NCBI GenBank assembly: GCA_028289135.1
Contig: JAQGGW010000004.1
Span: 758 to 64,757 of the forward strand
Reading direction: 5' to 3'
From: Candidatus Saccharimonadota bacterium
GTDB taxonomy: Bacteria > Patescibacteriota > Saccharimonadia > Saccharimonadales > JACDBH01
DNA: 64,000 nt
Part shown: piece by piece, positions 2,566 to 61,888 of the stretch
Position numbering within the stretch: the first letter of the stretch is position 1
Layout of the letters: every line of letters begins with the position of its first letter
Notes under the pieces: model-generated
The model's input: only the letters and a program-made list of their open reading frames with translations
Databases searched by the model: none
Told to the model about the DNA's origin: nothing
Made by a program: the position numbers and the translations under genes

Positions 2566-4221
2566 CTAAAAATGATCTCTAACGTGGGAGAAGCTGTAGT
2601 CCCAAGTAGCGTTGGCCTTTTTGTGCGGGTTAAAGATGTGGTTTGGGTCAAAAATAACTTTGGTTTTTTTAAACAGCTCAACAATTTCTTTGCCGTACAT
2701 TTCTTCTAGCCATGGGCCGCGGACCAAGCCGTCGTTGTGCTCGCCGCTTAAGGAGCCCTTATACTTCAAAACCAGTTCATTAACTTCGCGCATGCTTGGC
2801 TGCAGCTTTTCGCGCTCGTCTTTTTCTTCTAGTTTCATGAGGGGGATAATGTGGAAATTGCCATCGCCCATGTGGCCGGCAATCGTCGCGAGCAATTTAT
2901 ATTTCTTGATAATAACGCGGAGCTCTGGCAAAAACTGAGGCAAATATTCGGGGTTGATCACAAAGTCGTCAATGTATGGCGCGGTATGTTTGTCCTTGAC
3001 CTTGCTCCGGAGCAACTGGAAGCTTGAGCGGCGCATAATCTGGAATTTGCGCTGTTTTTGCTCGGTGTCGTCGTTTTCAAACAAACATTCATGTTTAAAC
3101 TCTTTCATGTCGGCGCGCAAGGCACTGACTTTTTGGCTAACTTCTTCAGGGGTGGCACCGGTAAACTCAGCCAGCAGAACCATCTTGGGAATACCGCGGA
3201 AAAGCAGCAGCGCGTCGGGAATAAGCTGGAAGGCAAGCTTAATGGTCTCTTTCCAGCCGATTAATTTGTGAAAAGAGAAAAACAGCTTAATGCTTAAAAT
3301 CAGCGTGTAGTTATCAAAGCCCTCAAATGTTGCCGGCTTGTGCGTCATGACTTTATTAATTAGGCTTCCAAGGTCATCTGTACTTTTAAGAAAAATAACC
3401 AAGCTGCCTGAGTGCGGGGTCGACGGCACCAAACGGAAGTTAATATCGGTCGTAAACCCAAGCGTGCCCTGGGCGCCGATGATAATCTGAGTCATGTCAA
3501 AAATGCCGGTTTCGCGGTCCCAAACATCCCACAATTTATAGCCGGTGGAGTTTTTACTCACGTGCGGTTTGGCGGCCTTGATTTTGTCATAATTTGCTTC
3601 AATCAGTTTGTAAAGTTCCTTATACAAATTTCCCTCGTAGTCATTTTGGGCGATTTTTGCGTCCAGGCCGGCTTTATTAAGCGGCTTGACGCTATATTCG
3701 TTGCCATCAGCAAACACCACTTTTAGCTCATTTACAAACTTCTCGGTCTTGCCAAATTCCAAAGACTTTTCGCCGCCAGAGTTGTTGTTAACCATACCGC
3801 CAACCGTACAGAGGTCACGTGAAGCCGGGAAGGGAGGCAGCAGAGCGTGCTGCTTCAGTGTTTCGACTTCAAAATCTCGGTAAAACACACCAGGTTGAAC
3901 CTGGGCGGATTGTGATGAAACAGAGGTGATTTTAGTAAAGTGCTTATTAAAGTCGGCAATGATTGAGTCGTTGATGGCACCACCAGACATATCGGTCCCT
4001 GCGCTGCGGGCAGTTACGCTCAAATTTGGGCTGTTGGCGCGCTCTGCATTAATAGTTTTTATAAGTACTTTAACATCGTCAGTGTCAGTAGGGGAGACAA
4101 TCAACTCTGGGCGAAGTTCAAACAACGAAGCGTCGTGGCTATAAAAATCCTTGGCCGTTGCCGAGTCATCTGTTTCACCTTTAAAACCAGCCGCTTTAAG
4201 CGCAGCAGTAAAATTATCCAT
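2566..4221 (-). CDS. FAD-binding oxidoreductase (GlcD / D-lactate dehydrogenase-like)
   Basis: 551 aa. The N-terminal FAD-binding PCMH-type region contains VTARSAGTDMSGGAI. The C-terminal region GSLSGEHNDGLVRGPW is typical of FAD-linked oxidases. Confidence 0.8.
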   Translation of the reverse strand: MDNFTAALKAAGFKGETDDSATAKDFYSHDASLFELRPELIVSPTDTDDVKVLIKTINAERANSPNLSVTARSAGTDMSGGAINDSIIADFNKHFTKITSVSSQSAQVQPGVFYRDFEVETLKQHALLPPFPASRDLCTVGGMVNNNSGGEKSLEFGKTEKFVNELKVVFADGNEYSVKPLNKAGLDAKIAQNDYEGNLYKELYKLIEANYDKIKAAKPHVSKNSTGYKLWDVWDRETGIFDMTQIIIGAQGTLGFTTDINFRLVPSTPHSGSLVIFLKSTDDLGSLINKVMTHKPATFEGFDNYTLILSIKLFFSFHKLIGWKETIKLAFQLIPDALLLFRGIPKMVLLAEFTGATPEEVSQKVSALRADMKEFKHECLFENDDTEQKQRKFQIMRRSSFQLLRSKVKDKHTAPYIDDFVINPEYLPQFLPELRVIIKKYKLLATIAGHMGDGNFHIIPLMKLEEKDEREKLQPSMREVNELVLKYKGSLSGEHNDGLVRGPWLEEMYGKEIVELFKKTKVIFDPNHIFNPHKKANATWDYSFSHVRDHF

Positions 4222-4474: not shown

Positions 4475-5668
4475 ATGAAGCAAAAACATGTACTCATAGT
4501 GGGCGGCGGCTTTGGCGGCGTCAAGGCAGCGCTTGACCTGGCGGCGCACGAAGAACACTTTAAAATTACCCTTTTATCCGACACAGACGCGTTTAGCTAC
4601 CACCCAACGCTCTACCACACGGCCACTGGCGGCAGCCGCGAAGTCTCAGACATTCCGCTGAAAGAAATCCTGGGCAATAAAAACGTCGAGATAATTTTGG
4701 GGCACGCGGACAAGCTAAACCGCGAAAACAAGACCATCCACACCGAAGATGGCCAAAAACTCAGCTATGACATTTTAATTTTGGCGCTTGGTGCCGTTAC
4801 CAACTACTTTGGTATTAAGGGCATGCAGGAATATTCCTACGGTATTAAATCAATCCAGGAAGCCGAAGAACTAAAAGCGCACCTCCACAAACAACTGATC
4901 GAAGACAAAAAGCCTGACCTAAACTACATCATCATCGGCGGCGGACCAACCGGCGTTGAACTTGCTGGCGCGCTGCCAGGTTACGTAAAGAGGATTATGG
5001 CCCAACATGGATTGCCGGACACCAAGCTCCACATTGACCTTGTAGAAGCCGCTCCGCATCTAATGCCTCGAATGCCAAAGTCTGTGTCTAAAGCCTTTGA
5101 GCGCCAACTGCGTTCACTTGGCATCAAGCTCTACCTCGGCACCCCCGTCCAGGCCGAAACCGCCAACACCATCCTCATGAACGGCAAATACGTCCGCAGC
5201 CACACCGTTGTCTGGACGGCCGGCATTGCCAACAACCCATTTTTTGAAGCCAACGGTTTTATTGTCGCCAAAAACCACAAAGTCCAGGTCGACAAACTGA
5301 TGCAGGCTTGGCCGGGCATTTTTGTCATTGGTGACAATGCCGACACGCAGTACAGCGGCATGGCGCAGACAGCACTCTATGACGCCCATTTTGTAGCCGA
5401 AAACCTAATCCGCCACGCCGCAGGCGAGCGCCCATATGCCTACAAGCCTAAAAAACCGATTTATGTAACACCTGCCGGGCCGCACTGGGCATCGGTTGTC
5501 TGGGGACCGGTACACCTTTATGGCTGGTTGGGCTGGGCAATGCGCCAAGCCGCCGACTGGATTGGCTATAAAGACCTTGAGCCATGGTGGCGCGCTACTG
5601 AGCTGCTGCTGGCCGGAGCCGACCACGAAGACAACTGCCCAATCTGTGCCGCAAACGCCGCCAAATAA
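4475..5668 (+). CDS. ndh: type II NADH dehydrogenase (NDH-2), FAD-dependent pyridine nucleotide-disulfide oxidoreductase
   Basis: Two dinucleotide-binding folds, HVLIVGGGFGGV and IIIGGGPTGVELAG, in a 397-aa protein. Confidence 0.82.
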   Translation: MKQKHVLIVGGGFGGVKAALDLAAHEEHFKITLLSDTDAFSYHPTLYHTATGGSREVSDIPLKEILGNKNVEIILGHADKLNRENKTIHTEDGQKLSYDILILALGAVTNYFGIKGMQEYSYGIKSIQEAEELKAHLHKQLIEDKKPDLNYIIIGGGPTGVELAGALPGYVKRIMAQHGLPDTKLHIDLVEAAPHLMPRMPKSVSKAFERQLRSLGIKLYLGTPVQAETANTILMNGKYVRSHTVVWTAGIANNPFFEANGFIVAKNHKVQVDKLMQAWPGIFVIGDNADTQYSGMAQTALYDAHFVAENLIRHAAGERPYAYKPKKPIYVTPAGPHWASVVWGPVHLYGWLGWAMRQAADWIGYKDLEPWWRATELLLAGADHEDNCPICAANAAK

Positions 5669-5681
5669 ACTGGCTTCCATT

Positions 5682-5715
5682 AAAAACCGGCGCTTTTTGT
5701 TAAGCACCGGTTTTT
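5682..5715. terminator. bidirectional intrinsic terminator between convergent genes
   Basis: AAAAACCGGCGC tttttgttaa GCACCGGTTTTT, a stem with one mismatch flanked by an A-run and a T-run. Confidence 0.6.
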
Positions 5716-5731
5716 AATTTACTAAACTAAA

Positions 5732-6244
5732 CTATTCGGTCTTTGCGGCCTTGGGGCCAACAAACTTTTCGCGTACCTGGAAAATCAGATAAAAGCCAAT
5801 TGCCGAGCCAATTAGTGACGACAAGAAACTGCTGACTCCGCGTCCATTAATAAGCAAAGTAATCACGCTATAAACCACGTTGAGAAGTGATCCTAAAAAG
5901 ATCAAATCCCAGCCAGTTTTTTGGCGTTTGGCGAGTTTGGGGTAGGCCATCAGCAATATTACCGCGTCAACAATCAGCAATATGATGCCAAGGGCAATAA
6001 ATAGTTTGTCTGTCCCGCTGATTCCAATGTTGGTATTTACTACTGTTCCATAGATTGTAACAATACTGTTGGCAACATGCACAAGGCGCCATAAGGCCAG
6101 TGCTGCAACCAGCTGAAGAATGCCAAAAACCAATGCCAACCAAGGCCAGATTTTTACTAAAGTTTCTTTTGTTTTATCTGATAATTTTGGCGCGTTTTTA
6201 TACCAGCCGCCAATTACGGTTTCTGCTTTTTTGACTAACTCCAT
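5732..6244 (-). CDS. hypothetical integral membrane protein (170 aa, about 4 TM helices)
   Basis: Hydrophobic segments include WPWLALVFGILQLVAALALW, LFIALGIILLIVDAVILLMAY and others. No motif recognised. Confidence 0.6.
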   Translation of the reverse strand: MELVKKAETVIGGWYKNAPKLSDKTKETLVKIWPWLALVFGILQLVAALALWRLVHVANSIVTIYGTVVNTNIGISGTDKLFIALGIILLIVDAVILLMAYPKLAKRQKTGWDLIFLGSLLNVVYSVITLLINGRGVSSFLSSLIGSAIGFYLIFQVREKFVGPKAAKTE

Positions 6245-6312
6245 CTAGGAACTCCTCGTTAATAATTACTCTCAATATAGCGCTTAATTCTGAGAATAAG
6301 CAAGTTGGTTTT

Positions 6313-7299
6313 TTACAAGATGAACATCGCATCGCCAAAAGAATAGAAGCGGTAGTTTTCTTTAACAGCATGCTCGTAGATCTTATGCAATTCTTCCACC
6401 GAACCTAAAAAGGCGCTCACCAGCATCAGCAGTGTACTTTTTGGCAAATGAAAATTAGTAATCAGCGAGGCGACAGCTTTAAATTCATAGCCGGGCGTAA
6501 TGAATATGGCTGTGGAGCCTTCTTCTTCGGCAAATGGCCGCTGTGCGCTCTCTAGAACCCGTACAGTCGTCGTACCGACCGCAACCGTGTGTATGGCGGC
6601 ATTCAGCTTGGCCGCGACCTCTGATGTAACAGAGTAGTGTTCTTCGTGCATAATGTGGTCTTTGATCTCATCTGTTTTTACAGGGGCGAAGGTGCCCATC
6701 CCAACGTGCAGGGTAACCTCGGCAAAGTCGTGGGTTTTTTTAATATTTGTTAAAAGCTCAGGGGTAAAGTGGAGCCCGGCAGTGGGCGCTGCCTTGCTGC
6801 CAAGCGGATCGGCATAGACGGTTTGGTATTCTTCGGCCAAAGACTCGTCCTGGGCAATGTAGGGTGGTAGAGGTGTTAGGCGGTGCGGGTCAAAACTTTG
6901 GTCGTCTAGCGTGCGGTCAAGACGGATGGTGCGGATGCCGTCTTCGGCAATGGCGTCAACCGTAAACTTAAAACCTTCAATAATCACTTCGCCAAGGCCG
7001 AATTTTCTGCCAGGGCGAACAAGCGCCGTAATGGTGGTTGGGTTAATGGTTTCCAGCACAAATATCTCTACTTTACCAAACTGCATGCGGCATTTTTCGA
7101 CACGGCTGTTATTTACAACCAGTGTTGATTTGGCAGGCAAATATTTTTCTAGATTGTAAAAATAGTCATCGGTAATTGTCTTGGTTTTGCGGTCATATAC
7201 TAGCAGCCGGGCATGGTCGCGCGGGCTAGCCGGCGTCTGGGCAATCAGGCGCTCAGGCAGCTCAAAATCAAAGTCTCTCAAAGTATAATTCTTAGGCAT
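6313..7299 (-). CDS. queA: S-adenosylmethionine:tRNA ribosyltransferase-isomerase
   Basis: MPKNYTLRDFDFELPERLIAQTP...HFTPELL...HVGMGTF is canonical QueA. The start is set at Met58 of track ORF 6313..7470, because the longer form overlaps the divergent helicase gene. Confidence 0.9.
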   Translation of the reverse strand: MPKNYTLRDFDFELPERLIAQTPASPRDHARLLVYDRKTKTITDDYFYNLEKYLPAKSTLVVNNSRVEKCRMQFGKVEIFVLETINPTTITALVRPGRKFGLGEVIIEGFKFTVDAIAEDGIRTIRLDRTLDDQSFDPHRLTPLPPYIAQDESLAEEYQTVYADPLGSKAAPTAGLHFTPELLTNIKKTHDFAEVTLHVGMGTFAPVKTDEIKDHIMHEEHYSVTSEVAAKLNAAIHTVAVGTTTVRVLESAQRPFAEEEGSTAIFITPGYEFKAVASLITNFHLPKSTLLMLVSAFLGSVEELHKIYEHAVKENYRFYSFGDAMFIL

Positions 7300-7321: not shown

Positions 7322-10300
7322 ATGGGTGAATTTTCAAAAGAATACGACAAACTAAATGCCGAACAGAAAAAAGCCGTCGATGCCACCGAGGGTGCGGTGC
7401 TGGTTATTGCCGGCCCAGGGACAGGCAAAACCCAGCTGCTTTCGCTGCGCGTAGCAAACATTTTGGACAAGTCGGACTCCCAAGCTCAAAACATTTTGTG
7501 CCTGACTTTTACCAACAAAGCGTCCAACAACATGCAGCTGCGTCTAAGCCGTTTGGTTGGCCCATTGGCGCACAAAGTCATGATCAATACCTTCCACAGC
7601 TTTGCCGCCGAAGTTATGAATATGTATCCTGAATACTTTTGGCAGGGCGCCCGGCTAATTAATGTACCGACAGCCGTGCAGTACGAAATTATTACCGACA
7701 TATTGTCGGCCTTGCCGTTAGACAACCCGCTAGCCTTAAAATTTGCGGGACAATTTACCAGCACCAAAGACGTTTTGGATGGGCTAAAACTGGCCAAGGA
7801 AGCAGGCTTAACACCCGATAAATTGCGGGCGTTAATTACCCATAATATTAGCTATATCGACGAGGTCGAAGACTTGCTGGTAGAAATCTGCAGTGAAAGA
7901 CTGAGCTATAAAAAGCTCGACGAACTTGCCATGCAGATCGAGGAGCTGCCCGAGCAGCATACCGACGAAGTTACCCGCCCGCTTGTGGCACTTTCAACAG
8001 TTATTTTAGAATCTTTTGAAGCCGCGCACACAGCCGACGACGGCACCGACAGAACCAAAAACACCAGCGCCTGGAAAGCACGCTGGATCAAATCGGTAGA
8101 AGGCCAAAAAGGCATGTTTGAAGAGCGCAAACGCAATGCCTGGTGGTTGGCGCTGGCAGACGTATACGAAAGCTACCGGAGCGCATTGCACGAACGCGGA
8201 TACTATGACTTTTCGGACATGATTATTGAAGTGATTTCGCAGCTGGAACAAAACCCAGACATGTTGGCAGACATCCAGGAGCGCTTTCATTACGTTTTGA
8301 TTGACGAATTCCAAGACACCAATGCCGCGCAGCTGCGCCTAGCGCACCTTGTGGCCGACAGCTACGCCAGCGCCGGCAACCCAAACATTATGGCGGTGGG
8401 TGACGACGACCAGTCGATCTACAAATTTAACGGCGCCGAACTTAGCAACATGATGGGCTTTACGCGCAGCTATCCGCAGGCAAAAACTTTTGTTTTAACC
8501 GACAATTACCGCTCCAGCCAAGACGTTTTGGATATTTCGATGCAGGTGATTGCACAGGCCAGCGAACGCGTGACCACAAAGCACGCCGCCATAACCAAGG
8601 AGCTTGTTGCCAAGAACCCTCCGTCCAAAAAAAGCAGCATCCAGCATCTTTCATTCCCAACTAAAGAGCACCAATATTACGAAATTGCCAAGCAAATCAG
8701 CAAGGCGCAAAAAGAGGGAAGTGTGGCAGTGTTGGCCCGCAGCCATGACAGCCTGCGCGCCGTGGCGCACACGCTAAATCTGCAAAACGTACCAGTTCGT
8801 TATGAACAGCAGCAAAGCGTTTTAGAGCAGCCAATTGTGAAGCAAATTAGATTAATCGCCGAAATTATTATCGCCATAGCGGACGGCAACGAAAACCTTG
8901 TTAACACATTTATCCCAGAACTTTTAACTTATGAGGCGTGGAACATTAAGCCCTATACATTGTGGGAGCTGGCCATTGGCAACCGCGGCAAGGCGCACTG
9001 GCTTAAAACCCTGACCGACCACCCTGACGAGCATTTGCAGACAATCGGTAACTGGCTATTGTGGCTAGCTGGCAAGGCCAAAACAGAACCGCTGTGCAGG
9101 GTGCTGGAATTTATAATTGGGCTTAGCGCATCCGAACATTTAACAAGCCCGCTTAGACGATTTTATCTGGAAGCGGACGCTGTTGATACGCCGTATCTTG
9201 CCAGCATTTCAGCCGTGCGAAAGCTTACCGAAATGGCGCAGGAATTTAGCAGCCACGGATCGGCCACAGTGCAGGACTTTATACGCCTGCTGCACGTTAG
9301 CATTAACAATAACCAAACCATTACCGACCAGTCTTTGTTTGTAACCGCTGCCAATGCCGTTGAGCTCCTAACGATCCACAAGGCCAAGGGGCTTGAGTTT
9401 GACGCGGTGTTTATCGTGGATGCCATGGAGTCAAATTGGAAGCCTTCTGCGCGCGGGCGTAAGGCACCTTCCAACTTGCCGCTCAGGCCAAACGGTGATG
9501 ATTATGACGATTACGTGCGGCTGATGTTTGTGGCCATGACACGTGCCAAGCGCGATATTACAATTGCCAGCTACTATACGACCGGCAGCGGGGACGAAGC
9601 GGTGGCGTCATCTATTATCCGTGACATTATTCCAGCAACAATACTGGATTATAACGAAGCCAATGATGCTGCAAAAGTTTTGGAAACAACGTTAACATGG
9701 CCGCGGCTAGAAGGATCAGAAGAAAAAGCATTACTGGGCGAAATATTAGAAAATTATACCCTGAGCCCGTCAGCATTTTTGGACTTTTTGGATGTTGCCA
9801 AAGGCGGCCCGCAGTATTTTTTGGAAAAGTATTTACTTCGTTTGCCAGAAGCGCAGTCTGTGCCGGCGGCGTTTGGTAGCTCTATCCACACTGCACTAGA
9901 ACGTGCTCAGCAAATGGTGCTGGATGACAACTTTGAGCTTGGCGCCGTGTTGTCCGCTTACAAAGCAGCACTGCTTGAACAAGGCATGAGCAACAACGAC
10001 TTTGAACGCTACTTGGACCACGGCAAGAAAATTATTAGCCAGCTATTTGAAAAGTACGACCTTGATCTGCAAAAAACTGGACAGCCAGAAGTTAGCCTGC
10101 GCGCGCGTTTTGACAACGTTACTATCGCCGGCAAATTAGACCGCGCAGACACAAGCGGCACCGAGCTGTTAATTACCGATTACAAGACAGGCAAGCCGTT
10201 AACTTCACTACAGACCAAAAGCCAAGCACTTCAGCAAAAAGCTTGGCGGCACCGAACGCAGCTTGAGCTATATACATTTATGGCAAAAGAATCGGGTCAC

Positions 10301-10534
10301 TATCCGGACTCCAAAACTATTGAAGCGCAAATGACGTATGTTGAAGCCGAGACAAAAAAAGAATTATCATTACGCTATGCAGCAGAGCCGGAAGCATTGC
10401 AACGTTTGCGGCATTTGGTAGTTGCAGTTAATGAAAAAATACAATCGCTCAACTTGCCAGACGTTCGCCATTATGAAGCAAGCTATAGTGGCACGCTGCA
10501 GTTTGAAGAAGACTTACTTAGCGGCGCAATATAA
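7322..10534 (+). CDS. UvrD/PcrA-family SF1 helicase fused to a C-terminal RecB-like PD-(D/E)XK nuclease domain
   Basis: Helicase motifs are Walker A AGPGTGKTQ, DEFQDTN and VGDDDQSIY. The C-terminus carries GKLDR...LITDYKTGK...QLELY, the RecB/AddB-type nuclease motifs. Confidence 0.85.
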   Translation: MGEFSKEYDKLNAEQKKAVDATEGAVLVIAGPGTGKTQLLSLRVANILDKSDSQAQNILCLTFTNKASNNMQLRLSRLVGPLAHKVMINTFHSFAAEVMNMYPEYFWQGARLINVPTAVQYEIITDILSALPLDNPLALKFAGQFTSTKDVLDGLKLAKEAGLTPDKLRALITHNISYIDEVEDLLVEICSERLSYKKLDELAMQIEELPEQHTDEVTRPLVALSTVILESFEAAHTADDGTDRTKNTSAWKARWIKSVEGQKGMFEERKRNAWWLALADVYESYRSALHERGYYDFSDMIIEVISQLEQNPDMLADIQERFHYVLIDEFQDTNAAQLRLAHLVADSYASAGNPNIMAVGDDDQSIYKFNGAELSNMMGFTRSYPQAKTFVLTDNYRSSQDVLDISMQVIAQASERVTTKHAAITKELVAKNPPSKKSSIQHLSFPTKEHQYYEIAKQISKAQKEGSVAVLARSHDSLRAVAHTLNLQNVPVRYEQQQSVLEQPIVKQIRLIAEIIIAIADGNENLVNTFIPELLTYEAWNIKPYTLWELAIGNRGKAHWLKTLTDHPDEHLQTIGNWLLWLAGKAKTEPLCRVLEFIIGLSASEHLTSPLRRFYLEADAVDTPYLASISAVRKLTEMAQEFSSHGSATVQDFIRLLHVSINNNQTITDQSLFVTAANAVELLTIHKAKGLEFDAVFIVDAMESNWKPSARGRKAPSNLPLRPNGDDYDDYVRLMFVAMTRAKRDITIASYYTTGSGDEAVASSIIRDIIPATILDYNEANDAAKVLETTLTWPRLEGSEEKALLGEILENYTLSPSAFLDFLDVAKGGPQYFLEKYLLRLPEAQSVPAAFGSSIHTALERAQQMVLDDNFELGAVLSAYKAALLEQGMSNNDFERYLDHGKKIISQLFEKYDLDLQKTGQPEVSLRARFDNVTIAGKLDRADTSGTELLITDYKTGKPLTSLQTKSQALQQKAWRHRTQLELYTFMAKESGHYPDSKTIEAQMTYVEAETKKELSLRYAAEPEALQRLRHLVVAVNEKIQSLNLPDVRHYEASYSGTLQFEEDLLSGAI

Positions 10535-10565
10535 AAAGAACTTCGCTGTTAGACGAAGTTCTTTT
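10534..10565. terminator. bidirectional intrinsic terminator between the convergent helicase and aquaporin genes
   Basis: AAAAGAACTTCG ctgttaga CGAAGTTCTTTT, a perfect 12-bp stem with flanking A and T runs. Confidence 0.65.
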
Positions 10566-10582
10566 AATGTAACTACTTAGAC

Positions 10583-11353: not shown

Positions 11354-11460
11354 GTATACAAACCCTCCGTTAGTTTATTACCTACAATCATAATACGTTT
11401 TTATACTTTTGCAAATATTATCTGTAGAACACCTTGTTTTTACTGAACAAGAAACGGTAA

Positions 11461-11567
11461 CGTACACGAGTGCAGTTTGGCCGAAGAACGAGCACCGGAT
11501 TCGGAGTGTATAGGGAAATACATGCAGAAACGGAGCGGAGTTATTCGGTCAAAATGTGCCGTGTACG
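11461..11567 (-). repeat. intergenic structured repeat, type 1, copy A (candidate cis-acting RNA element)
   Basis: The closing helix is CGTACACG / CGTGTACG. It carries the conserved blocks GCACATTTTG, GCTCCG, CGGTGCT and AAACTGCACT shared with the copies at 17437 and 50148, and a central mini-hairpin GTATttccctATAC. It starts 1 nt after the atpC stop codon. Confidence 0.7.
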
Positions 11568-11993
11568 TTAGCGCCGTTTGTTTCTCTTCAAGCCAGCGAC
11601 TTGCAGGCGTACCGCATGTCTATCCATCAAACTTTGTGCGTGTTGTAATGACACTTGGTCTTTAGCCTCAGCCTTCATTTTCTTAGCCAACTCAAATGCC
11701 TTCTGCACTTCTTGTTCATTCAATTCATCTGCATGATCGGCTTCGTCAACCAAGATTTTTAGTTCGTCATTTTCGACCTGTACAGTACCGCCAGATATTG
11801 CAAAAACTTCGCGCTGGTCGTCACGCTCTCCAGCAGTTTTGCGCACCATAATCGCGCCGTGCGTTGCAACGCTAATTAGCGGCATGTGGCCGGGAAGCAC
11901 ACCGATTTCGCCGTCCAAAGTCGGGATCAAAACTTCGTATGCTTCGCCGTCAAATTTAACGCCGTCTAGTGTATATAAAACAAAGTGAATCAT
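11568..11993 (-). CDS. atpC: F1 ATP synthase subunit epsilon
   Basis: 141 aa with VLIPTLDGEIGVLPGHMPLISV, and it sits immediately after atpD. Confidence 0.88.
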   Translation of the reverse strand: MIHFVLYTLDGVKFDGEAYEVLIPTLDGEIGVLPGHMPLISVATHGAIMVRKTAGERDDQREVFAISGGTVQVENDELKILVDEADHADELNEQEVQKAFELAKKMKAEAKDQVSLQHAQSLMDRHAVRLQVAGLKRNKRR

Positions 11994-12002
11994 GAATGAA
12001 TA

Positions 12003-13653
<1,651 letters not shown>

Positions 13654-13657
<4 letters not shown>

Positions 13658-14541
13658 TTCATTGCCTCCGCGCCGCCGGTTACTTCGGCGATTTCTTGGG
13701 TAATGTTGGACTGGCGGGCGCTGTTGAATGCCAGTGTCAGATCGCTAATAATATCATTCGCGTTATCGGTCGCGTTCTTCATGCTGAGCATGCGCATTGA
13801 ATGCTCAGATGCGATACTCTCCAGCATAGCTTGCCAAATTTGTACTTCCAACAAACGCTCCGTAACATTATCTAGAACATCGGTAATTGACGGCTCAAAA
13901 GTTACGCTGCTGAGCGACTCGGTCGCGCCGGGGTCAGATTCGTCCAAACGGGCAGGCAACAATGACATTGCGTTGGCAACCTGCAAGATGTTTGATTGGT
14001 GAACAGTGTAGAGCAGCTGCACATCATCGACTGCGGCCGTGGCGTACTGGTCGATAATGCTGGTCAAGATTGGGCGGAGGTCATTGGCACTTGGGTGGTC
14101 ACCAAAACCAGGAAAGGCCGCAACAAGTTCAATGCTTTCCAAACGGCGGATAAACTGCACGCCGCGCTTACCGATCACAATCGCTTGGGTTTTAATTCCT
14201 TGTTTTTTGTCCTCGATCGCGGCACGCGTCAAAAGCTTGATGATGTTTGAGTTGTAGGCGCCGGCAAGGCCACCATCGCTGGTGATGGCAACATACAAAC
14301 GGGTCTTTACTTCTCGCTGCACAAACAATGGGTGTTCGTTTACATCAGTTACGGTTGTAAGACGGCTAAGCAGCTCATGGGCGGCAATGCGGTAGCTGCG
14401 CCCGCGCTGTGCCACTTCTGTTGCACGGCGCATTTTTGAGGCCGAAACCAACTCCATCGCCTTGGTAATCTGGCGGGTAGAACGCACACTCTTGATGCGC
14501 CGTTGGAGGAGCTGGGTACTAGGCATTAAAAGGCTCCCCAC
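13654..14541 (-). CDS. atpG: F1 ATP synthase subunit gamma (alternative start at Met6, 14526)
   Basis: LLQRRIKSVRSTRQITKAMELVSASKMRRA at the N-terminus and ITQEIAEVTGGAEAM at the C-terminus are canonical gamma-subunit sequences. Confidence 0.92.
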
Positions 14542-14917
14542 TTCCAGCGTCTTCAGGTGGATAAAGACTACCTATTGGTAGGCCACGAAGTACCGCACTT
14601 TCTTCCATAGTCGTAAAAAACTTCAATTCTGCAGCTCTAGCATTTTCGGTTAACTGTTCAATCGGTAATTGTTCAGTAGTGAGCCCTGCATCCATGAGTG
14701 CATGAATCGCATAACTTATTCCAGCATTAAATGCTGATGAAAGTGTTTCAGCAATGCTTAAGCCAGTTATCTCAGTTAAATCCCCGGCACTTATACCAGA
14801 CAGCATTAGCATACGCGCCTGTTCTGCAACATCTTCAACTTCCATTATTTTACCCACTGAACGCTCAACACTTCGCCTTGCCATATCAGAGACTGGAAAG
14901 TTGTTGGAGTCAGTCAC
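14519..14917 (-). CDS. hypothetical 132-aa protein inserted between atpA and atpG
   Basis: Its GTG start overlaps the atpA stop (TAGTG), and its 3' end overlaps the atpG start by 8-23 nt. It is on the same strand and fills the gap. No motif recognised. It is acidic, and GC is about 37-47% in sampled lines. Confidence 0.5.
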   Translation of the reverse strand: MTDSNNFPVSDMARRSVERSVGKIMEVEDVAEQARMLMLSGISAGDLTEITGLSIAETLSSAFNAGISYAIHALMDAGLTTEQLPIEQLTENARAAELKFFTTMEESAVLRGLPIGSLYPPEDAGSGEPFNA

Positions 14918-17407: not shown

Positions 17408-17436
17408 TTATTTATTCTCCAGGTCTAAGGATTTTT

Positions 17437-17540
17437 GTATATGAGTGCAGTTTGGGCGAAAAGCGAGCACCGTAAACGAGGCGTACGGGATGGTACGGTG
17501 AGTGCGGAGCGCAGATTTTCGTTCAAAATGTGCCATATAC
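17437..17540 (-). repeat. intergenic structured repeat, type 1, copy B, inside the atp operon (candidate cis-acting RNA element)
   Basis: The closing helix is GTATATG / CATATAC. The conserved blocks match copies A and C. The core is TCACC-GTACcatcccGTAC-GCCTC. The element occupies 104 nt of the 147-nt atpE-atpF spacer. Confidence 0.75.
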
Positions 17541-17554
17541 ATAAATCCTACTTA

Positions 17555-20816: not shown

Positions 20817-21407
20817 ATGCTAAGAGTACTTATGGCGTTTGAGGATTTTAAAACAAAAGAGTCGGTCGTGTTGGTTTATACCGGCGAGGGCAAAGGCAAA
20901 ACATCTGCCAGCGTGGGGCTGATGGCGCGCGCATTAGGACGGGGGTGGAAAGTGGCCTATGTGCAATTTGTAAAAACCTGGGAAACAGGCGAGTCGCAGT
21001 TTATTGCCAAACTGCTAGAATCTAAAGTTTTTGAAGATAAATTGGTTTATTTTAGAGGCGGCAAAGGATTTTATAACGCCGGTGATTTAAGCGCCAAAGA
21101 TGTTAGCGAAAACGAGCATAAAGAAGCCGCCCGTACCACTTATGAATTTGCACTTAAATGCATTAAAGACCCATCGTTTGACCTAATTATCTGCGATGAA
21201 ATCAACAACTCCGTGCATGATGGCCTTTTGCCAAAGGCTAGCCTCAAAAAGCTCCTAACCAGCCGCGGCGCAGGTACTAGCATTTGTGTAACTGGGCGTA
21301 ACTTCCCAGAGGACCTTTTGCCGCTAATGGACATAGCCACCAACATGACCAAAATTAAGCACCACTTTGATGATAAATTTTTGGCTAACAAAGGTATTGA
21401 TTACTAA
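20817..21407 (+). CDS. cob(I)yrinic acid a,c-diamide adenosyltransferase (CobO/BtuR family)
   Basis: VLVYTGEGKGKTSASVGLMARALGRGWKVAYVQFVK plus ICDEIN match the CobA/CobO/BtuR P-loop family. The start is set at an internal Met downstream of the previous gene's stop. Confidence 0.7.
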   Translation: MLRVLMAFEDFKTKESVVLVYTGEGKGKTSASVGLMARALGRGWKVAYVQFVKTWETGESQFIAKLLESKVFEDKLVYFRGGKGFYNAGDLSAKDVSENEHKEAARTTYEFALKCIKDPSFDLIICDEINNSVHDGLLPKASLKKLLTSRGAGTSICVTGRNFPEDLLPLMDIATNMTKIKHHFDDKFLANKGIDY

Positions 21408-22402
21408 TGTTTGCAGCAACTGCAGTTCAAAGCCTCAACATCCACGCAGCATGGTGGCACTGGGCGCTACTCGGCGGCTGGTTTTTATTTTTGATCCTTT
21501 TTGACATTTTGGTTGTGCACCGCAAAGACCATGTGCCGACGCTTAAAACGGCCGTCCAACAGAGTGCAGTGTGGATCGCGCTTGGCGTTGCACTTGGTTT
21601 AGTGGTATTTGCGGCCTATGGACATGAAGCGGGCAGCCAGTATTTTAGCGGCTATTTGATAGAGAAATCATTGTCTGTCGATAACGTGTTTGCGTGGTCA
21701 GTGATATTGGGCTACTTTAAGGTGCCAAAAGAGTATCAGCACCGGGTGTTGTTCTGGGGGATATTTGGCGCGCTAATTATGCGCACTGTGTTTGTTTTTG
21801 CCGGCATTTCATTGATTAACCACTTCGAACCAATCTTGCTCGTTTTTGGAATCCTGCTCTGTTTTAGCGGCTACAAACTTCTTAAAACCCGCGAAGAAGA
21901 TGAATTTGACCCAAGCAAAAGCAAGCTTTTTAAAACAATTAAAAAAGTTATTCCTGTTAGCCATGGCTTGGACGGCCACAAATTGTTCACAGCCGAAAAT
22001 GGAAAACGGGTTGCCACCATGCTGTTTATGGCGTTGCTTGTCATAGAAATCACTGATGTAATCTTTGCCGTGGACAGCGTTCCGGCAATCTTGGCCATTT
22101 CGCGTGATCCTTTCATTGTGTTGGCCAGCAATGCCGCCGCCATCTTGGGTCTCCGCGCACTATATTTTGTGTTTGAGTTTATTAAGGATAAGTTCTGGAT
22201 GCTAAATAAAGCGCTCGGCGTTTTGCTGTTCTTTATTGGTGTAAAAATGTTTATAACGCCTGAGAAAATTTTTGGCCACGCTTGGCTGTATGTTCACATT
22301 TCAACGGGAATCAGCCTGATAATTATTGGCCTTATGCTTGCAGTTGGCATAGTCGGTTCATTACTCTATCCTCAGGCCACAAATCCCACACCAGCTAAGT
22401 AA
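21407..22402 (+). CDS. TerC-family integral membrane protein
   Basis: A 331-aa polytopic protein with EKSLSVDNVFAW and FAVDSVPAILAIS, the TerC signatures. Confidence 0.8.
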   Translation: MFAATAVQSLNIHAAWWHWALLGGWFLFLILFDILVVHRKDHVPTLKTAVQQSAVWIALGVALGLVVFAAYGHEAGSQYFSGYLIEKSLSVDNVFAWSVILGYFKVPKEYQHRVLFWGIFGALIMRTVFVFAGISLINHFEPILLVFGILLCFSGYKLLKTREEDEFDPSKSKLFKTIKKVIPVSHGLDGHKLFTAENGKRVATMLFMALLVIEITDVIFAVDSVPAILAISRDPFIVLASNAAAILGLRALYFVFEFIKDKFWMLNKALGVLLFFIGVKMFITPEKIFGHAWLYVHISTGISLIIIGLMLAVGIVGSLLYPQATNPTPAK

Positions 22403-22432
22403 ATGTGGGCAAAGCCCAGCATTATACTTAGC

Positions 22433-22542
22433 CTCTCGGCTCATTTCGGCTTGAGACTTTGCGGTGCGCAGAAGCAGTACCCACATGTACAACTTCTTTG
22501 CGCTTCGCAGCCTCGCACCGAAATGAGCTCGAGTGTGGAATC
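22433..22542 (+). repeat. intergenic structured repeat, type 2, copy D (candidate cis-acting RNA element)
   Basis: A long helix GGCTCATTTCGG / CCGAAATGAGCT encloses TTGCGgtgCGCAG, the mini-hairpin GTACccacatGTAC and TTTGCGcttCGCAG. The 3' block is AGCTCGAGTGTGGAATC. It is collinear with the copy at 61468. Confidence 0.7.
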
Positions 22543-46124: not shown

Positions 46125-48317
46125 ATGAATATCCGTCTCAAAACACTTGGCATCAACACCCTGGCTGTGGCCAGTGTTCTTTTTATTTTGTACCAGGTTT
46201 CGGCACCGCTCATTTTGCATGGTTTTGAAAAAGTAGAGACAAATGACGCCATCCAGAACGTCGGCAGAGCCACCGACGCCATCAACAGCCAGCTTTTTTC
46301 ACTTAGCAGCAAGCTGATCGACTGGGCCAGCTGGGACGATTCGTATAACTTTGCGGCCGACAAAAACAACGAGTTTGTACAAAGTAACTTTGGCGGCAAC
46401 GACACCTACAAAAGCCCCATTTTTGACATGATTTTGTACTTTAATACCAAAGGCAAATTGGTCTATGCAAACGGCAGCAGCAAACCCTCTGCCGAGCTTT
46501 TAGACAAGCTGAGCCCAACAAGCCCGTTGTTAAAGTACGACAATGCAGCAAATATTGATGCCGATGCCGAGGCAGTAAGCGGGATTATCACCACCAAAGA
46601 GGGCATTTTACTCGCCTCCAGCCGGCCAATTTTGCATAACGACGGCTCGGGTCCAACCCACGGGTCAATTATTTTTACTAAATTTTTAACAACCGCATAT
46701 ATTGGCGAGCTGGCCGAAACGGCTCATTTGGATCTTGGTTTTTATCCTGTAAACAGCACAAAACTGCCTCCTGACGCTATAGCTATTGAGTCAAGCCTGA
46801 GCGTCGGCAAAACAATAACAAAAGCCCAAAATAGCACCATCATCAATGGCTACACTTTGCTAGCAGGCCTGGATGGCAAGCCAGCAGTGCTGGTGCGTGT
46901 TAACCTCGACCGCGAAATTTATGATCAGGGACGCGAAAGCCTGCACCTTTTTCTTATCATCCTGCTTGTAGCGGGCGTCTTGTTCCCACTGGTTACCTCT
47001 ATACTGCTCGATGCATTGGTAATTCGTAGAATTGAGCTTCTTACCAAAAACGTTACCAAAATTAATGACCAAAACGGCCTTAAAAACAAGCTAACGTTTA
47101 AGGGGAGTGACGAAGTTGCGCTGCTTGCAACCAGCATTAACCACATGCTCCAGCGTATCGAAGACTCTAACCAGCATGTTCATAGCTTAGTAGGCCAGCT
47201 AAAAATCGAAAAAGAGGGCGTCGAAGACCAGGTCAGGCAACGGACACATCAGTTGGAAGAAGAAAAAACCCGCTTTTTTGCCTCCATCAACAGCCTGCCG
47301 CTGGGCTTTATCCTAACCGACTCGAGCGACCATGTCCTCATGATGAATCCAAGCATTAAAAAGATTTTAAGCTTTAGCTCGGATGATGCAAAAAGTATTG
47401 CAAAAAAGATAGCCGAAAAAGACTCTCTGCTGCTTAAGCTCATGGAACACACCAGCAAAGTTACGGACAGCAAAAAAATATCAACCATCGAGCTATCTAC
47501 CCCAGAAGGCCGGTTCTTGCATGCACTGGCAGCCCCCGTCTTAACGCACGCAGGAACTGTAGACGGAACGGTTATTATTGTTGAGGACGTCACCGAAGCT
47601 AAGATTATGGAACGCTCAAAAGAAGAGTTTTTCTCGATTGCTTCCCACGAACTTAGGACACCGCTTACGGCAATCCGCGGCAATACGTCGCTTATCAAAC
47701 AACTCTACGAAGACCAGCTTAAAGACCCTTCGTTTAACGAAATGGTGGACGATATTCACTCCTCTAGCATGCGCTTGATTTCGATTGTAAATGACTTTTT
47801 GGATGTTAGTAGTTTGGAGCAGGGGAAAATTAAATTTACCGAAAAAGATTTTGATATCAGTACAACCATTGAAGAAGTTATAAAAGAAATGAACGGCATG
47901 GTGACCGAGAAAAAGCTGTACCTTACCTTCGAAAAACCAGCCCAGGCACTTCCGCTGCTTCACGCCGATCCGAACCGTATTAAGCAGGTCATCTACAACC
48001 TCATTGGAAACTCTATTAAGTTTACCGAAACAGGCGGCGTAACGATCAAAACAGAAGTCATGCCAAACAAAATGCTCAAGATTATGCTTATCGACACCGG
48101 CCGCGGTATATCACCAGAAGGGCAGCAGCTGCTGTTTCACAAGTTCCAGCAAACGGGTGAAAGCCTGCAGACGCGTGACACTACCCGCGGGACAGGACTG
48201 GGGCTTTATATATCTAAGCTCATTGTGGAACATTTTGGCGGCCAAATAAAGCTGGACGCAAGCCAAGAGGGCGATGGCCATGGCAGCACGTTTAGCATTA
48301 CGCTACCGCTAGCTTAA
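46125..48317 (+). CDS. sensor histidine kinase with a CHASE4-like extracytoplasmic domain, HAMP, PAS, HisKA and HATPase
   Basis: LIDWASWDDSYNF is CHASE4-like. The H-box is IASHELRTPLT, and the N- and G-boxes are NLIGNSIKFT, DTGRGIS and GTGLGLYI. Confidence 0.88.
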   Translation: MNIRLKTLGINTLAVASVLFILYQVSAPLILHGFEKVETNDAIQNVGRATDAINSQLFSLSSKLIDWASWDDSYNFAADKNNEFVQSNFGGNDTYKSPIFDMILYFNTKGKLVYANGSSKPSAELLDKLSPTSPLLKYDNAANIDADAEAVSGIITTKEGILLASSRPILHNDGSGPTHGSIIFTKFLTTAYIGELAETAHLDLGFYPVNSTKLPPDAIAIESSLSVGKTITKAQNSTIINGYTLLAGLDGKPAVLVRVNLDREIYDQGRESLHLFLIILLVAGVLFPLVTSILLDALVIRRIELLTKNVTKINDQNGLKNKLTFKGSDEVALLATSINHMLQRIEDSNQHVHSLVGQLKIEKEGVEDQVRQRTHQLEEEKTRFFASINSLPLGFILTDSSDHVLMMNPSIKKILSFSSDDAKSIAKKIAEKDSLLLKLMEHTSKVTDSKKISTIELSTPEGRFLHALAAPVLTHAGTVDGTVIIVEDVTEAKIMERSKEEFFSIASHELRTPLTAIRGNTSLIKQLYEDQLKDPSFNEMVDDIHSSSMRLISIVNDFLDVSSLEQGKIKFTEKDFDISTTIEEVIKEMNGMVTEKKLYLTFEKPAQALPLLHADPNRIKQVIYNLIGNSIKFTETGGVTIKTEVMPNKMLKIMLIDTGRGISPEGQQLLFHKFQQTGESLQTRDTTRGTGLGLYISKLIVEHFGGQIKLDASQEGDGHGSTFSITLPLA

Positions 48318-50053
48318 AGTTGCCGGGTTTGCTTTTGCCACAAGGAATAATAACGGCCTTTATTTTTAAGCAGCTGGGCGTGAGTGCCTTCTTCTTCGAT
48401 AGCGCCGTTATGCATGACAATTATTCTATCCAGCCCCGCCACGGTGCTGAGCCTGTGGGCGATAATAACTGCCGTGTGTTTTCCAATAATTTCCGGCAGG
48501 GCCGCTTGGATAATAGATTCGCTTTCACTGTCCAGCGCGCTAGTGGCTTCGTCAAATAGGATCATTGGCGCGTTTTTGAGCACCGCCCGGGCAATAACAA
48601 CGCGTTGTTTTTGGCCACCGCTGAGCTTGACACCGCGTTCACCAACAATTGTGTCGTAACCCTTTGGCAGATCCATAATAAAGCTGTGGGCATAGGCGGC
48701 TTTGGCGGCCTTTTCAATTTCCGCGTGGCTGGCAGCCGAGTTGTGGTAGGCAATGTTTTCTTTTATTGTACGGTGAAATAGCACCGGCTCCTGAGGCACG
48801 TAGGCAATATGGCGGCGCAGGTCGCTTTGCTTAACGTCGCGTATGTCTACGCCATCGATAGCAATCGAACCGGACTCAATATCATCAAAACGCATAAGCA
48901 GGCTAGCGAGCGTGCTTTTGCCGGCGCCGCTAAGGCCAACAACGCCCACATGTTCGCCGGCTGCAATCTCCAGATTCATGTTTTTAAAAATATAGCCTGC
49001 CGAATTATCACCGTACCTAAAACTCATATCTTTTATGCTAACTGCGGCTTGGTTTGGGTTAAAGTCCTGAGCTTCTTCCGAATCAGCGATTGACTCATGG
49101 GTTGGTTCCAGAACCTCCAGCGTCGGCACAAGCTTGCTGACAAGATCGTCGTGCCGCTCGATAAGATCAGGCACATCGCCGAGGTTGCGGTTAATCTGAA
49201 ACAGGTAGGTAATAGTAAGGACAATCAAGCTTACTTTACTGTTGCCTCCATGTCGTGAAGCTTGTAACACAAACCAGAAGCCAAGTCCCATTATGAGCGT
49301 AGTCATAATTATGCGCGGCGAATCAAGCAGGATTGTCACCTTACGGCGTTGCCAAAAAGCATCAGCTTCCTGCTTCTCTAACTTCTCAATACGTGTCAAA
49401 GCGGCTGCTTCTTGCCCAGCAGCTTTGTACGCCACAATGTTAGTAATGTCGTCAGCTACTTCTCCCGCAATTTTTCTGTATAGTTCGTGGGACTTCTCCC
49501 TGTAGTGTTTTGTCTTACTCGAAGCCCATGACATATAAAAAATTTGAAATATAACTAATCCAAACGCCGTTAGTCCGACTTTCCATGACGCAATAGTGAG
49601 TACGAGCGCAGGGATAGTAAGAGATACCGATGCACGCACTATATCAGTACGAAGTAGCCTTAACAGGTCGAGTGAACTATCGACATACTGCTTTAACATA
49701 CTTGTTAAATAGCCAGTATGGCTGTCGCGGTAAAATGACATATCTTTATTTGTAAGTTTTTTGTAATACCTAACCGCATTTGTTTCATAAATGGCATTTT
49801 CACCGCGATGTGAGAGCAGGCCGGTAAGAGTTAGTAACACGTCGGCAAACAGTACCACGCTAACAAATAGTATAATGTCATGTTTAGCTTCCCCGTAGTG
49901 ACCAGCCGCAATATTAGCGGCAAGGTTTGCAAGAATTAAGAGCGAAAATATGCGAGCAATAAGTGTACGGATAATTTCCGCCACAAAAGAAAACCACACC
50001 GTAGGCTTGCGCCCATAAGTGTGCAGCAGGTGTTTATAAGCCTTCCGATTCAT
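48314..50053 (-). CDS. ABC exporter, fused permease/ATPase (MsbA-like)
   Basis: A six-TM N-terminal half, then Walker A GLSGAGKST, signature LSGGQKQR and Walker B ILFDEATS. Confidence 0.9.
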   Translation of the reverse strand: MNRKAYKHLLHTYGRKPTVWFSFVAEIIRTLIARIFSLLILANLAANIAAGHYGEAKHDIILFVSVVLFADVLLTLTGLLSHRGENAIYETNAVRYYKKLTNKDMSFYRDSHTGYLTSMLKQYVDSSLDLLRLLRTDIVRASVSLTIPALVLTIASWKVGLTAFGLVIFQIFYMSWASSKTKHYREKSHELYRKIAGEVADDITNIVAYKAAGQEAAALTRIEKLEKQEADAFWQRRKVTILLDSPRIIMTTLIMGLGFWFVLQASRHGGNSKVSLIVLTITYLFQINRNLGDVPDLIERHDDLVSKLVPTLEVLEPTHESIADSEEAQDFNPNQAAVSIKDMSFRYGDNSAGYIFKNMNLEIAAGEHVGVVGLSGAGKSTLASLLMRFDDIESGSIAIDGVDIRDVKQSDLRRHIAYVPQEPVLFHRTIKENIAYHNSAASHAEIEKAAKAAYAHSFIMDLPKGYDTIVGERGVKLSGGQKQRVVIARAVLKNAPMILFDEATSALDSESESIIQAALPEIIGKHTAVIIAHRLSTVAGLDRIIVMHNGAIEEEGTHAQLLKNKGRYYSLWQKQTRQL

Positions 50054-50147
50054 TACCTATACGATACCATTTCTTTTACTTACTAGAATATACTTTACTA
50101 AAAACCCGCCGATTCTTTATAGCCCGCAGATATCGATGGGTTTCGAA

Positions 50148-50247
50148 CGATAGTGCAGCTTGGGATGAAAGCCAAGCACCGAAGCGGAGGCGTATGGCAT
50201 GATACGGTGAGCATCGGAGCACAGGCTTTCGCCCAAGATGTGCATCG
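50148..50247 (-). repeat. intergenic structured repeat, type 1, copy C (candidate cis-acting RNA element)
   Basis: The closing helix is CGAT / ATCG, extendable imperfectly to 50142..50253. The second helix is CTTGGG..AAAGCC / GGCTTT..CCCAAG. The core is TCACC-GTATcatgccATAC-GCCTC, and the conserved blocks match copies A and B. Confidence 0.72.
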
Positions 50248-50265
50248 TGCGGAAGCCTCTCACAT

Positions 50266-50296
50266 AAAAAAGCCCGCTCTCTCAAGCGGGCTTTTT
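50266..50296 (-). terminator. intrinsic terminator downstream of the Asn-rich protein gene (bidirectional-capable)
   Basis: AAAAAAGCCCGC tctctcaa GCGGGCTTTTT, a perfect 7-bp GC-rich stem flanked by A and T runs. Confidence 0.7.
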
Positions 50297-50309
50297 CAGT
50301 AACCGTCAA

Positions 50310-61286: not shown

Positions 61287-61463
61287 ATGAAAATGCTTAT
61301 CTTTCTTGGCACCACTGTGGGCGGTGTACTTGGCGGGCTTTTTGGTCAAATACTTGATAAAGGTAATGGTCTAGGTGGCTGGAGCCTGTTATTTGGCGGT
61401 TTAGTAGGACCATTATTAGGTTTGTGGGCCGGCTATAAAATCGGCAAATACATGGCCGAATGA
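61287..61463 (+). CDS. small Gly-rich membrane protein (58 aa, below the track cutoff)
   Basis: Translated by hand: MKMLIFLGTTVGGVLGGLFGQILDKGNGLGGWSLLFGGLVGPLLGLWAGYKIGKYMAE. It has two glycine-zipper-like helices. Confidence 0.45.
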   Translation: MKMLIFLGTTVGGVLGGLFGQILDKGNGLGGWSLLFGGLVGPLLGLWAGYKIGKYMAE

Positions 61464-61467
61464 TCCA

Positions 61468-61588
61468 GGAATCCCACACTTGGCTATTTCCGCCCCGAGT
61501 CCTTGCGGTACGCAGTCACCATAATTAGATATATGCCTCCTTTGCGTTCCGCAGACTCAGAACGAAACTAGCTCGAGCGTGGAATCCC
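61468..61588 (+). repeat. intergenic structured repeat, type 2, copy E (candidate cis-acting RNA element)
   Basis: Collinear with copy D. The elements are GGCTATTTCCG / CGAAACTAGCT, TTGCGgtaCGCAG, TCACC-ataattagatatat-GCCTCC, TTTGCGttcCGCAG and AGCTCGAGCGTGGAATC. GGAATCCC occurs at both ends (61468 and 61581). Confidence 0.7.
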
Positions 61589-61888
61589 TGAAGTTGTGAG
61601 GAAAAATTTCTCAGTTTTGTGTTTGAAACTTGACGGGTACACCTTTGATACAGTAGGGTAAGGAGCTATATGCCAATTCAGGCATGACTTTAACCATAAG
61701 TTTGATAGACTACAGTGTACATGAACGCGTACCAGAATAACTTACTAGGCATAAAATGAATTATTTGCGAGATAAAATTAACAAAGTGCGACAAGAGGTA
61801 GCATTAGCTACATTGCGAAGCAGTTTGTTAATTTTAGCCGAAAATAGTCATTTTAGGGCAGGAAGGATATTCCGGTACGCGTTCTAAT

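Follow-up and report, generated by a model that had tools for sequence, protein, structure and literature searches.

The 64,000-nt stretch of Saccharibacteria DNA that was analysed (64 kb; hereafter the window) carries a long hairpin, copy A, between the last gene of the atp operon and a MIP/aquaporin gene, and the locus raises the question of which transcript, if any, this hairpin serves. The genomes of Saccharibacteria, and of the Candidate Phyla Radiation in general, are tiny and leave hardly any DNA to spare, and to our knowledge almost no non-coding elements have been described in them. An earlier note on this DNA had read copy A as belonging to a family of structured repeats and had placed it where the atp operon ends, so that it could stabilise the 3′ end of the atp mRNA or act as a 5′ leader of the MIP gene. 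The structure, the family membership and the position were confirmed, and copy A was found to be probably neither an mRNA stabiliser nor a leader.

Copy A and its hairpin family

In gene sense, copy A starts at the base after the TAA of atpC (ATP synthase epsilon, PF02823; 11568–11993, − strand; stop at 11568–11570) and ends 107–108 nt upstream of the start (11353) of the downstream MIP gene (PF00230; 10583–11353, − strand), with coordinates and sequence as previously described. The 107-nt core delimited by the earlier note (11461–11567, + strand) matches the family model, and the full hairpin spans 11452–11579 on the + strand, the strand under selection to fold, with the apical loop at 11512–11517. 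The 8-bp closing helix ascribed to copy A (CGTACACG/CGTGTACG) was present but not limited to 8 bp; it extends to AACGTACACG/CGTGTACGTT (11459–11468/11560–11569) and, after a 3-nt bulge, to an outer helix AAACGGT/GCCGTTT (11452–11458/11573–11579). Nor is it a peculiarity of copy A, as family members normally have a closing helix of 8–10 bp together with an outer helix. One arm of the outer part is made up of the atpC stop and the three codons before it, and the + strand base of the hairpin is the complement of the atpC stop and last codons.

Conserved blocks were recognised along the + strand. Block A-GUGCA-G (11469–11475) pairs through GUGCA with UGUGC (11555–11559), the end of the conserved block CAAAAUGUGC (11550–11559), via an invariant tandem U·G/G·U (UG in 77 and GU in 77 of 78 copies); these tandem pairs were fixed by the search pattern and were left out of the strand statistics. 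Block GA-GCACCG (11490–11497) pairs with CGGAGC (11531–11536; repeat family D3) around an A·A mismatch. The alignment bore out that the blocks GCACATTTTG, GCTCCG, CGGTGCT and AAACTGCACT are common to copies A, B and C and that the apical flanks of copy A are replaced; its apical flank is a compensated variant (U-A for C-G) present in approximately 5% of the family members. Copy A scored 116.5 bits with covariance model R1 and 94.4 bits with model R2 (E-value approximately 1e-25), and was, as claimed, the most divergent of the three window copies (105.6 and 106.1 bits with R2 for the other two), still well inside the family. Mini-ORFs in the apical region showed no conservation between copies, and the geometry of the kink-turn consensus, judged by reading alone, did not fit the GA/GCA loop.

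Copy B (17428–17549, core 17434–17544, + strand) lies between atpE (c subunit) and atpF (b subunit) in the same orientation as copy A, antisense to the atp operon. Copy C (50138–50258, core 50142–50254, + strand) is divergent from an ABC-transporter gene (48314–50053, − strand) and has a two-way intrinsic terminator (50266–50300) downstream of it on the + strand. Both copies fold better on the + strand than on the − strand, as copy A does.

A search pattern made of the four invariant blocks was scanned against one genome per species (185,579 species). It produced 72 loci, all 72 in Saccharibacteria or Saccharimonadales assemblies, and a back-of-envelope estimate gave approximately 0.4 matches expected by chance. 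The covariance-model search that the earlier note had proposed as a check was built on the three window copies; it gave 77 strong copies, 78 after a copy from a relative was added, with scores of 52–118 bits, and placed copies A, B and C and their relatives in one family. Most copies were retrieved by a pattern that required the four conserved blocks, so the conservation of the blocks is partly an ascertainment effect. In the alignment of the 78 copies, 93.8% of the cells formed standard pairs, and both partners vary in 33 of the 41 pairs; the observed pairing and covariation were reached in none of 500 shuffles, and the pairing fell to 31–46% when the partners were slid. The unit has a core of approximately 110 nt and reaches approximately 125–130 nt with the outer helix (overall range approximately 110–130 nt). 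In most copies the stem extends 5–9 bp past the model; (T)AGGACTT/AAGTCCT(A) is a frequent form of this extension, and the other forms covary. As judged from these aligned sequences, the secondary structure of the family is maintained by compensatory change.

A search of Rfam 15 on both strands, at the gathering score and at E ≤ 10, showed no family over the element (best E = 4–5); in the window only three tRNAs passed, and the matches near copy C corresponded to the adjacent terminator. The phage, plasmid and viral-contig searches gave no match to the element, and nothing relevant was found in the literature on repeats or hairpins of Saccharibacteria and Patescibacteria. Copy A belongs to a real, multi-copy and previously undescribed hairpin family, seen only in Saccharibacteria.

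Other hairpins of the window, termed type-2, have the length and layout of the type-1 elements and blocks of their own (GAGCU..UUUCG, CUGCG.A.CGCAAAG and CUGCG.ACCGCAA), and score 46–57 bits with the type-1 family model. One (61465–61590, − strand; 56.6 bits with R2) adjoins the stop of a small + strand ORF (61288–61464), and a second (22428–22539, − strand; 46.1 bits with R2) lies just 3′ of a TerC gene (21407–22402, + strand). These hairpins, too, fold far more strongly in the antisense direction of the ORF at whose stop they lie (−71.8 vs −46.4 kcal/mol for the element at 61465–61590). A scan of metagenomes with a type-2 pattern, which was too strict, gave two loci only, on contigs L087 and L088, where the hairpin lies between convergent genes. 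Just downstream of the type-2 element at 61465–61590, a long imperfect and AT-rich inverted repeat (61723–61884; 44-nt arms, 75% complementary) encloses a hairpin with 30-nt arms (61773–61836).

The strand kept foldable

In every one of the 77 copies, the window + polarity, which is the sense of the model, gave a more stable fold than its complement (mean −50.8 vs −35.4 kcal/mol). As RNA, the core of copy A gave −49.0 kcal/mol (z = −7.6) on the + strand and −34.8 kcal/mol (z = −5.7) on the − strand, and none of 200 shuffles was as good. The full hairpin gave −60.8 kcal/mol (z = −8.5) on the + strand vs −45.3 kcal/mol on the − strand, with the same asymmetry under DNA parameters (−36.1 vs −26.6). 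Across the consensus pairs, the two pattern-fixed pairs excluded, 245 G·U cells were counted vs 40 A·C cells (p = 4e-37). G·U made up 8–12% of the pairs and was the commonest state at several mid-helix positions, where it alternated with G-C and A-U. The outer helix, which is covered by neither the pattern nor the model, gave a G·U to A·C ratio of 14:3. Unpaired positions were 46% A and 31% G (77% purine), a composition that fits the sense strand of structured RNAs. The same asymmetry was found in the elements reached through AtpC homologues, including those of L081 and L086, which have a different core and no pattern match. It is the window + strand, complementary to the atp and MIP mRNAs, whose folding has been maintained, and selection acts on a single strand of this polarity.

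Other sources of the asymmetry were considered and set aside. Transition preferences at four-fold degenerate sites were only approximately 1.2-fold (C/T 1.24, A/G 1.19), and mutation bias of this size cannot produce the six-fold excess of G·U. Binding of a cruciform or double-stranded palindrome was rejected by reasoning, since it predicts symmetric half-sites and no asymmetry of G·T vs A·C. An orientation set by the replication arm was judged unlikely, as type-1 and type-2 elements face opposite ways in one window of monotonic skew. The genes groES, rpsA and nusA, which carry the element in the reverse relation, also count against it, and the immediate neighbours predict the orientation of the element better than the other genes of the locus do.

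The strand evidence bears directly on the proposal that copy A works as a hairpin in the sense (−) transcript, protecting the 3′ end of the atp mRNA or directing its processing. Intra-operon copies such as copy B must be co-transcribed in sense, as would copy A if atp transcription runs past the atpC stop. The sense RNA folds at the energies given above (−34.8 kcal/mol for the core and −45.3 kcal/mol in full, z = −5.7 to −7.2) and is followed in copy A by a U-rich stretch (UUUCUUGUU), and the position right after stop codons recalls the REP sequences of E. coli. REPs stabilise upstream mRNA, and attenuate translation when near a stop codon. However, the sense strand would carry mid-helix A·C mismatches in 22–68% of the copies, alternating with G-C and A-U, which is the signature of G·U wobble on the other strand. 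In every copy the sense fold is weaker by approximately 15 kcal/mol, and pyrimidines would account for 77% of its unpaired positions. L074, L081 and L086 do not share the U-rich tail, and most relatives with the same gene order lack the element. The terminator scan found no intrinsic (rho-independent) terminator at copy A. A role in the sense transcript is unlikely overall. Of the stabiliser suggested earlier, the folding of the sense RNA stands, but all strand indicators favour the + strand; in this weakened form, a sense hairpin of −35 to −45 kcal/mol would be stable enough for some passive 3′ protection of the atp mRNA.

The tandem U·G/G·U, the frequency of G·U, the purine-rich loops and the copies in 5′ UTRs point, with moderate confidence, to RNA rather than DNA as the folding molecule; since G·T pairs are tolerated in single-stranded DNA too, RNA is probable rather than certain. 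A recombination site working as folded single-stranded DNA, like the bottom strand of an integron attC or a Xer/HUH hairpin site, would share several features by analogy: an imperfect hairpin directly 3′ of ORFs, a folding strand that is antisense to the ORF (the bottom strand in attC), structure conserved above sequence, and conserved bulged bases, which matter in attC. The differences are larger, and we regard this explanation as very improbable. The core sites of attC (R″/R′, RYYYAAC ... GTTRRRY) were absent from the ends of the element, which vary (CGTACACG, TTTGTATATG, TAGGACTT and others), and there are no R/L core sites, cassette arrays or integrase, the hosts being core housekeeping operons (atp, rpsO, rpsR, tuf, pnp). 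In addition, the invariant tandem G·T would destabilise DNA, and the copies upstream of groES, rpsA and nusA argue against a fixed link to the direction of replication or of cassettes.

Gene context and the atp sites in relatives

Immediate neighbours of the copies were opposite to the folding strand in 124 cases and on the same strand in 21 (approximately 85% opposite), compared to 320 opposite and 148 same for the other genes in the same loci (p = 3e-5). Both flanking genes were opposite at 57 of the 66 sites that had both neighbours called, based on crude ORF calls. The order in gene sense is ORF, stop, hairpin, 20–140 nt and next ORF; in most copies 0–6 nt separate the hairpin base from the first stop-codon base, and in spacers such as atpE–atpF 20–47 nt are left before the next gene. 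TAG was over-represented as the abutting stop codon (55% vs 34.5%, p = 0.002). The abutting ORFs are housekeeping genes: atpE (many), atpC, rpsO, rpsR, rpsU, tuf, pnp, pyrG and ftsX. Most copies lie between co-directional genes, antisense to them, with the base near the stop of the upstream gene.

Approximately one in ten copies breaks the antisense rule. The copies of groES, rpsA, nusA, a polymerase IV-like gene and an aminoacyl-tRNA synthetase gene lie in the 5′ UTR in the folding orientation, 17–34 nt before the start, while others (window copy C, L025 and L029) are divergent from their neighbour and ahead of a terminator. These exceptions imply that some sites certainly yield RNA of the folding polarity and that the hairpin there is no block to transcription of the gene behind it. 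The groES leader (L008, approximately 30–120 in model sense) has a promoter (TTGACG-17-TATAGT) and a CIRCE-like operator (TTAGCACTC-N9-CAGTGCTAA), followed by the type-1 element and then by a Shine-Dalgarno sequence. A terminator role of the element was not supported: no canonical terminator was present within 90 nt in 75 of the 78 copies, it was always a separate hairpin in the other 3, and the groES copy sits between promoter plus CIRCE and the gene. Dedicated antisense promoters found no support either, as sigma-70-like promoters upstream on the folding strand showed no enrichment (6 of 67 sites vs 7.4 ± 2.5 in shuffles).

Related AtpC genes were found at 13 loci, which represent 11 distinct sequences as L083–L085 share one, and the spacers were taken from gene calls. 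The order atpC, MIP and a convergent UvrD/PD-(D/E)XK helicase gene was conserved in the relatives. Between copy A and MIP a sigma-70-type promoter was predicted (TTGCAA-16-TATGAT, 11414–11387, − strand), and it is kept in L074, L075, L076, L078, L079, L081 and L086, with or without the element. A conserved promoter in this position rules against the element being the MIP leader that had been proposed, and MIP transcription should, from the sequence, start downstream of the element. A 5′ leader or riboswitch would lie between promoter and start and be conserved with the gene; there are relatives that keep promoter and MIP without the element. At the other end of MIP, a two-way intrinsic terminator (AAAAGAACTTCG-loop-CGAAGTTCTTTT, 10537–10566) that was missed by the simple terminator scan lies inside the 48-nt gap to the convergent helicase-nuclease gene (7322–10534, + strand).

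The element was found after the atpC stop only in L074 (AtpC 98%), L081 (95%) and L086 (89%). No model match was present in the atpC–MIP spacers of L078 (96%), L075 (92%), L082, L083–L085, L076, L080, L077 and L079. Conservation of the spacer, by which the earlier note had suggested judging copy A, thus extends to 3 of the 11 relatives and fails in other close ones. The relatives are not close at neutral sites, with a four-fold identity to L074 of 0.52–0.59. Copy A is orthologous to the elements of L081 and L086, with a common closing-helix start and a TTACCG 3′ flank, while the L074 element is a second, tandem insertion of which L081 keeps only the 3′ remnant. The outer helix co-varies with the C-terminal codons of atpC (AAACGG/CCGTTT in the window vs TCTCG/CGAGA in L086), and in the outer helix of these orthologues G·U is again on the antisense strand. 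The window and at least 11 genomes with AtpF only 33–51% identical have an element in the atpE–atpF spacer, and the four close relatives examined have a bare spacer of 19–25 nt. Absence from the atpC–MIP spacer of most relatives indicates that the element is dispensable there, and its patchy presence at sites argues against an important local role.

Several further apparent insertions were observed in these operons. A small perfect hairpin (CCCCATAAAAC-TAG-TTTTATGGGG; L081 996–1030 in gene sense) is nested in the apical region of the L081 element and looks like an insertion within an insertion. The atpC–MIP spacers of L077 (8427–8681) and L079 (3434–3627) hold other AT-rich sequence with inverted repeats of their own (for example TTTTCAATTACCAATT ... 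AATTGGTAATTGAGA), which may be another repeat family at the same site. Extra small genes are wedged into the atp operon of relatives: in L086 at 868–1281 and 2722–3126 (PF05635, the bAvd-like 23S rRNA intervening-sequence protein) and in L077 at 3371–3661, 4537–6395 and 7795–8004. At comparable positions the window has ORFs of 132 aa (14519–14917, − strand) and 79 aa (13418–13657, − strand) with no Pfam match. In this lineage, the atp operon is apparently a hot spot of small insertions.

Copying, retention and known systems

Two copies in the same MAG (L002 and L005) share 91% identity over a stretch that coincides exactly with the hairpin, their flanks are unrelated, and no direct repeat or target-site duplication was found at their boundaries. 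The hairpin unit can be copied as a whole, and its presence at each site is patchy among relatives. A selfish, non-autonomous mobile element of the MITE or REPIN kind, passing through single-stranded DNA of + polarity (HUH-type) or an RNA intermediate, would need the structure just for copying, and its orientation bias would result from the harm that a strong fold does in operon mRNAs. The near-identical pair with homology confined to the hairpin, the varying presence among related genomes, the two different elements at the atpC site (the L081 flank carries the remnant of a second, tandem copy that matches the L074 element), the atpE–atpF spacer that is filled in distant lineages and empty in the closest relatives of the window, the coexistence of sub-types in one genome and the enrichment of TAG all fit such an element. 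However, there was no recent burst, the median identity being 0.74 within genomes vs 0.71 between genomes, and pairing (94%) and strand asymmetry have survived in copies that are old and diverged, although a relic in decay would be expected to lose both. Changes in the outer helix go along with those in the host coding sequence, the element varies most at its termini, and no target-site duplication was observed. No ORF with the HUH+Y motif of the IS200/RAYT type was found in 705 kb around the copies, a weak test confined to the loci, and the phage, plasmid and viral-contig searches were negative. A purely selfish element accounts for patchiness and copying but leaves the long retention of structure without an explanation; we consider it possible but on the unlikely side. 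The retention suggests that the element is kept in place by selection and is not a decaying transposon relic.

We tentatively prefer to see a structured element that is interspersed and copied now and then, and that works as a single strand of + polarity, most likely RNA. Its conserved internal loops probably form a recognition surface for a protein. At the copy A locus, the element lies between the atp operon and the MIP promoter and is dispensable, and on the atp mRNA it could act only as the weaker complementary hairpin. A + strand transcript, if one exists, would start in or beyond the MIP promoter region, and its hairpin, with the complement of the atpC stop in its base, might serve at the ORF boundary to cap antisense RNA, process it or stop it. 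The weak point of this reading is that no source of a + transcript is visible at antisense sites: promoters are not enriched, spacers go down to 20 nt, and a two-way terminator lies between the convergent helicase gene and MIP. A more specific version, that these are domesticated, self-copying antisense RNAs at ORF ends and that a Saccharibacteria protein reads the tandem G·U and the GA/A·A loops and caps, cleaves or stops antisense transcripts at the stop codon, is doubtful. If it were true, the elements would be orientation-specific "antisense insulators" for the packed operons of reduced genomes, with the module reused in the 5′ UTRs of groES, rpsA and nusA.

At least 78 copies in one phylum, three of them in 64 kb, with strong compensatory evolution and a place at the stop codons of essential operons, would represent either a new structured RNA with an unusual antisense action or a new persistent mobile hairpin, and either outcome informs gene expression and genome dynamics in these epibionts. 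For annotation, such spacers are not to be called terminators or leaders, and the strand test used here (G·U vs A·C, loop composition) is a cheap guard against assigning a repeat to the wrong transcript.

The family ranks with the interspersed hairpin repeats of bacteria and is unusual in the strand on which selection maintains the structure, which is antisense to the abutting genes. Elements of the REP/BIME/REPIN type with RAYT in enterobacteria and pseudomonads are likewise multi-copy, extragenic and hairpin-forming, often lie right after genes and in operons, and show long vertical persistence (PMC3116915, PMC3337134). The whole hairpin is the copied unit in both cases. In the RAYT-REP structure one strand is recognised and the REP hairpin has G·T pairs, as in the present family. 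Unlike REPINs, the family showed no RAYT in the 705 kb of loci and does not consist of two inverted short REPs; its inner blocks rather than its ends are conserved, its orientation is strongly biased relative to neighbouring genes, and its copies within a genome are approximately 74% identical (one pair 0.91) with no tight sequence population.

MITEs of the Correia/NEMIS and ERIC type are also intergenic inverted-repeat elements of 100–150 bp that are co-transcribed with their neighbours as long RNA hairpins, which are processed by RNase III or RNase E. Their terminal inverted repeats are conserved, they duplicate a TA target and their copies are highly similar, and we know of no strand asymmetry described for them. 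The present family differs in having no duplication, variable termini and a strand-asymmetric structure; terminal inverted repeats with a target-site duplication, the marks of a MITE, were not found, TA ends being present in approximately 5 of 64 copies only, and a TA target duplication was therefore rejected as a general feature. The RNase III hairpins of the phage T7 early mRNA are likewise a set of similar hairpins with conserved internal loops between cistrons. Those act in the sense transcript, whereas the sense transcript here is the poorly pairing complement.
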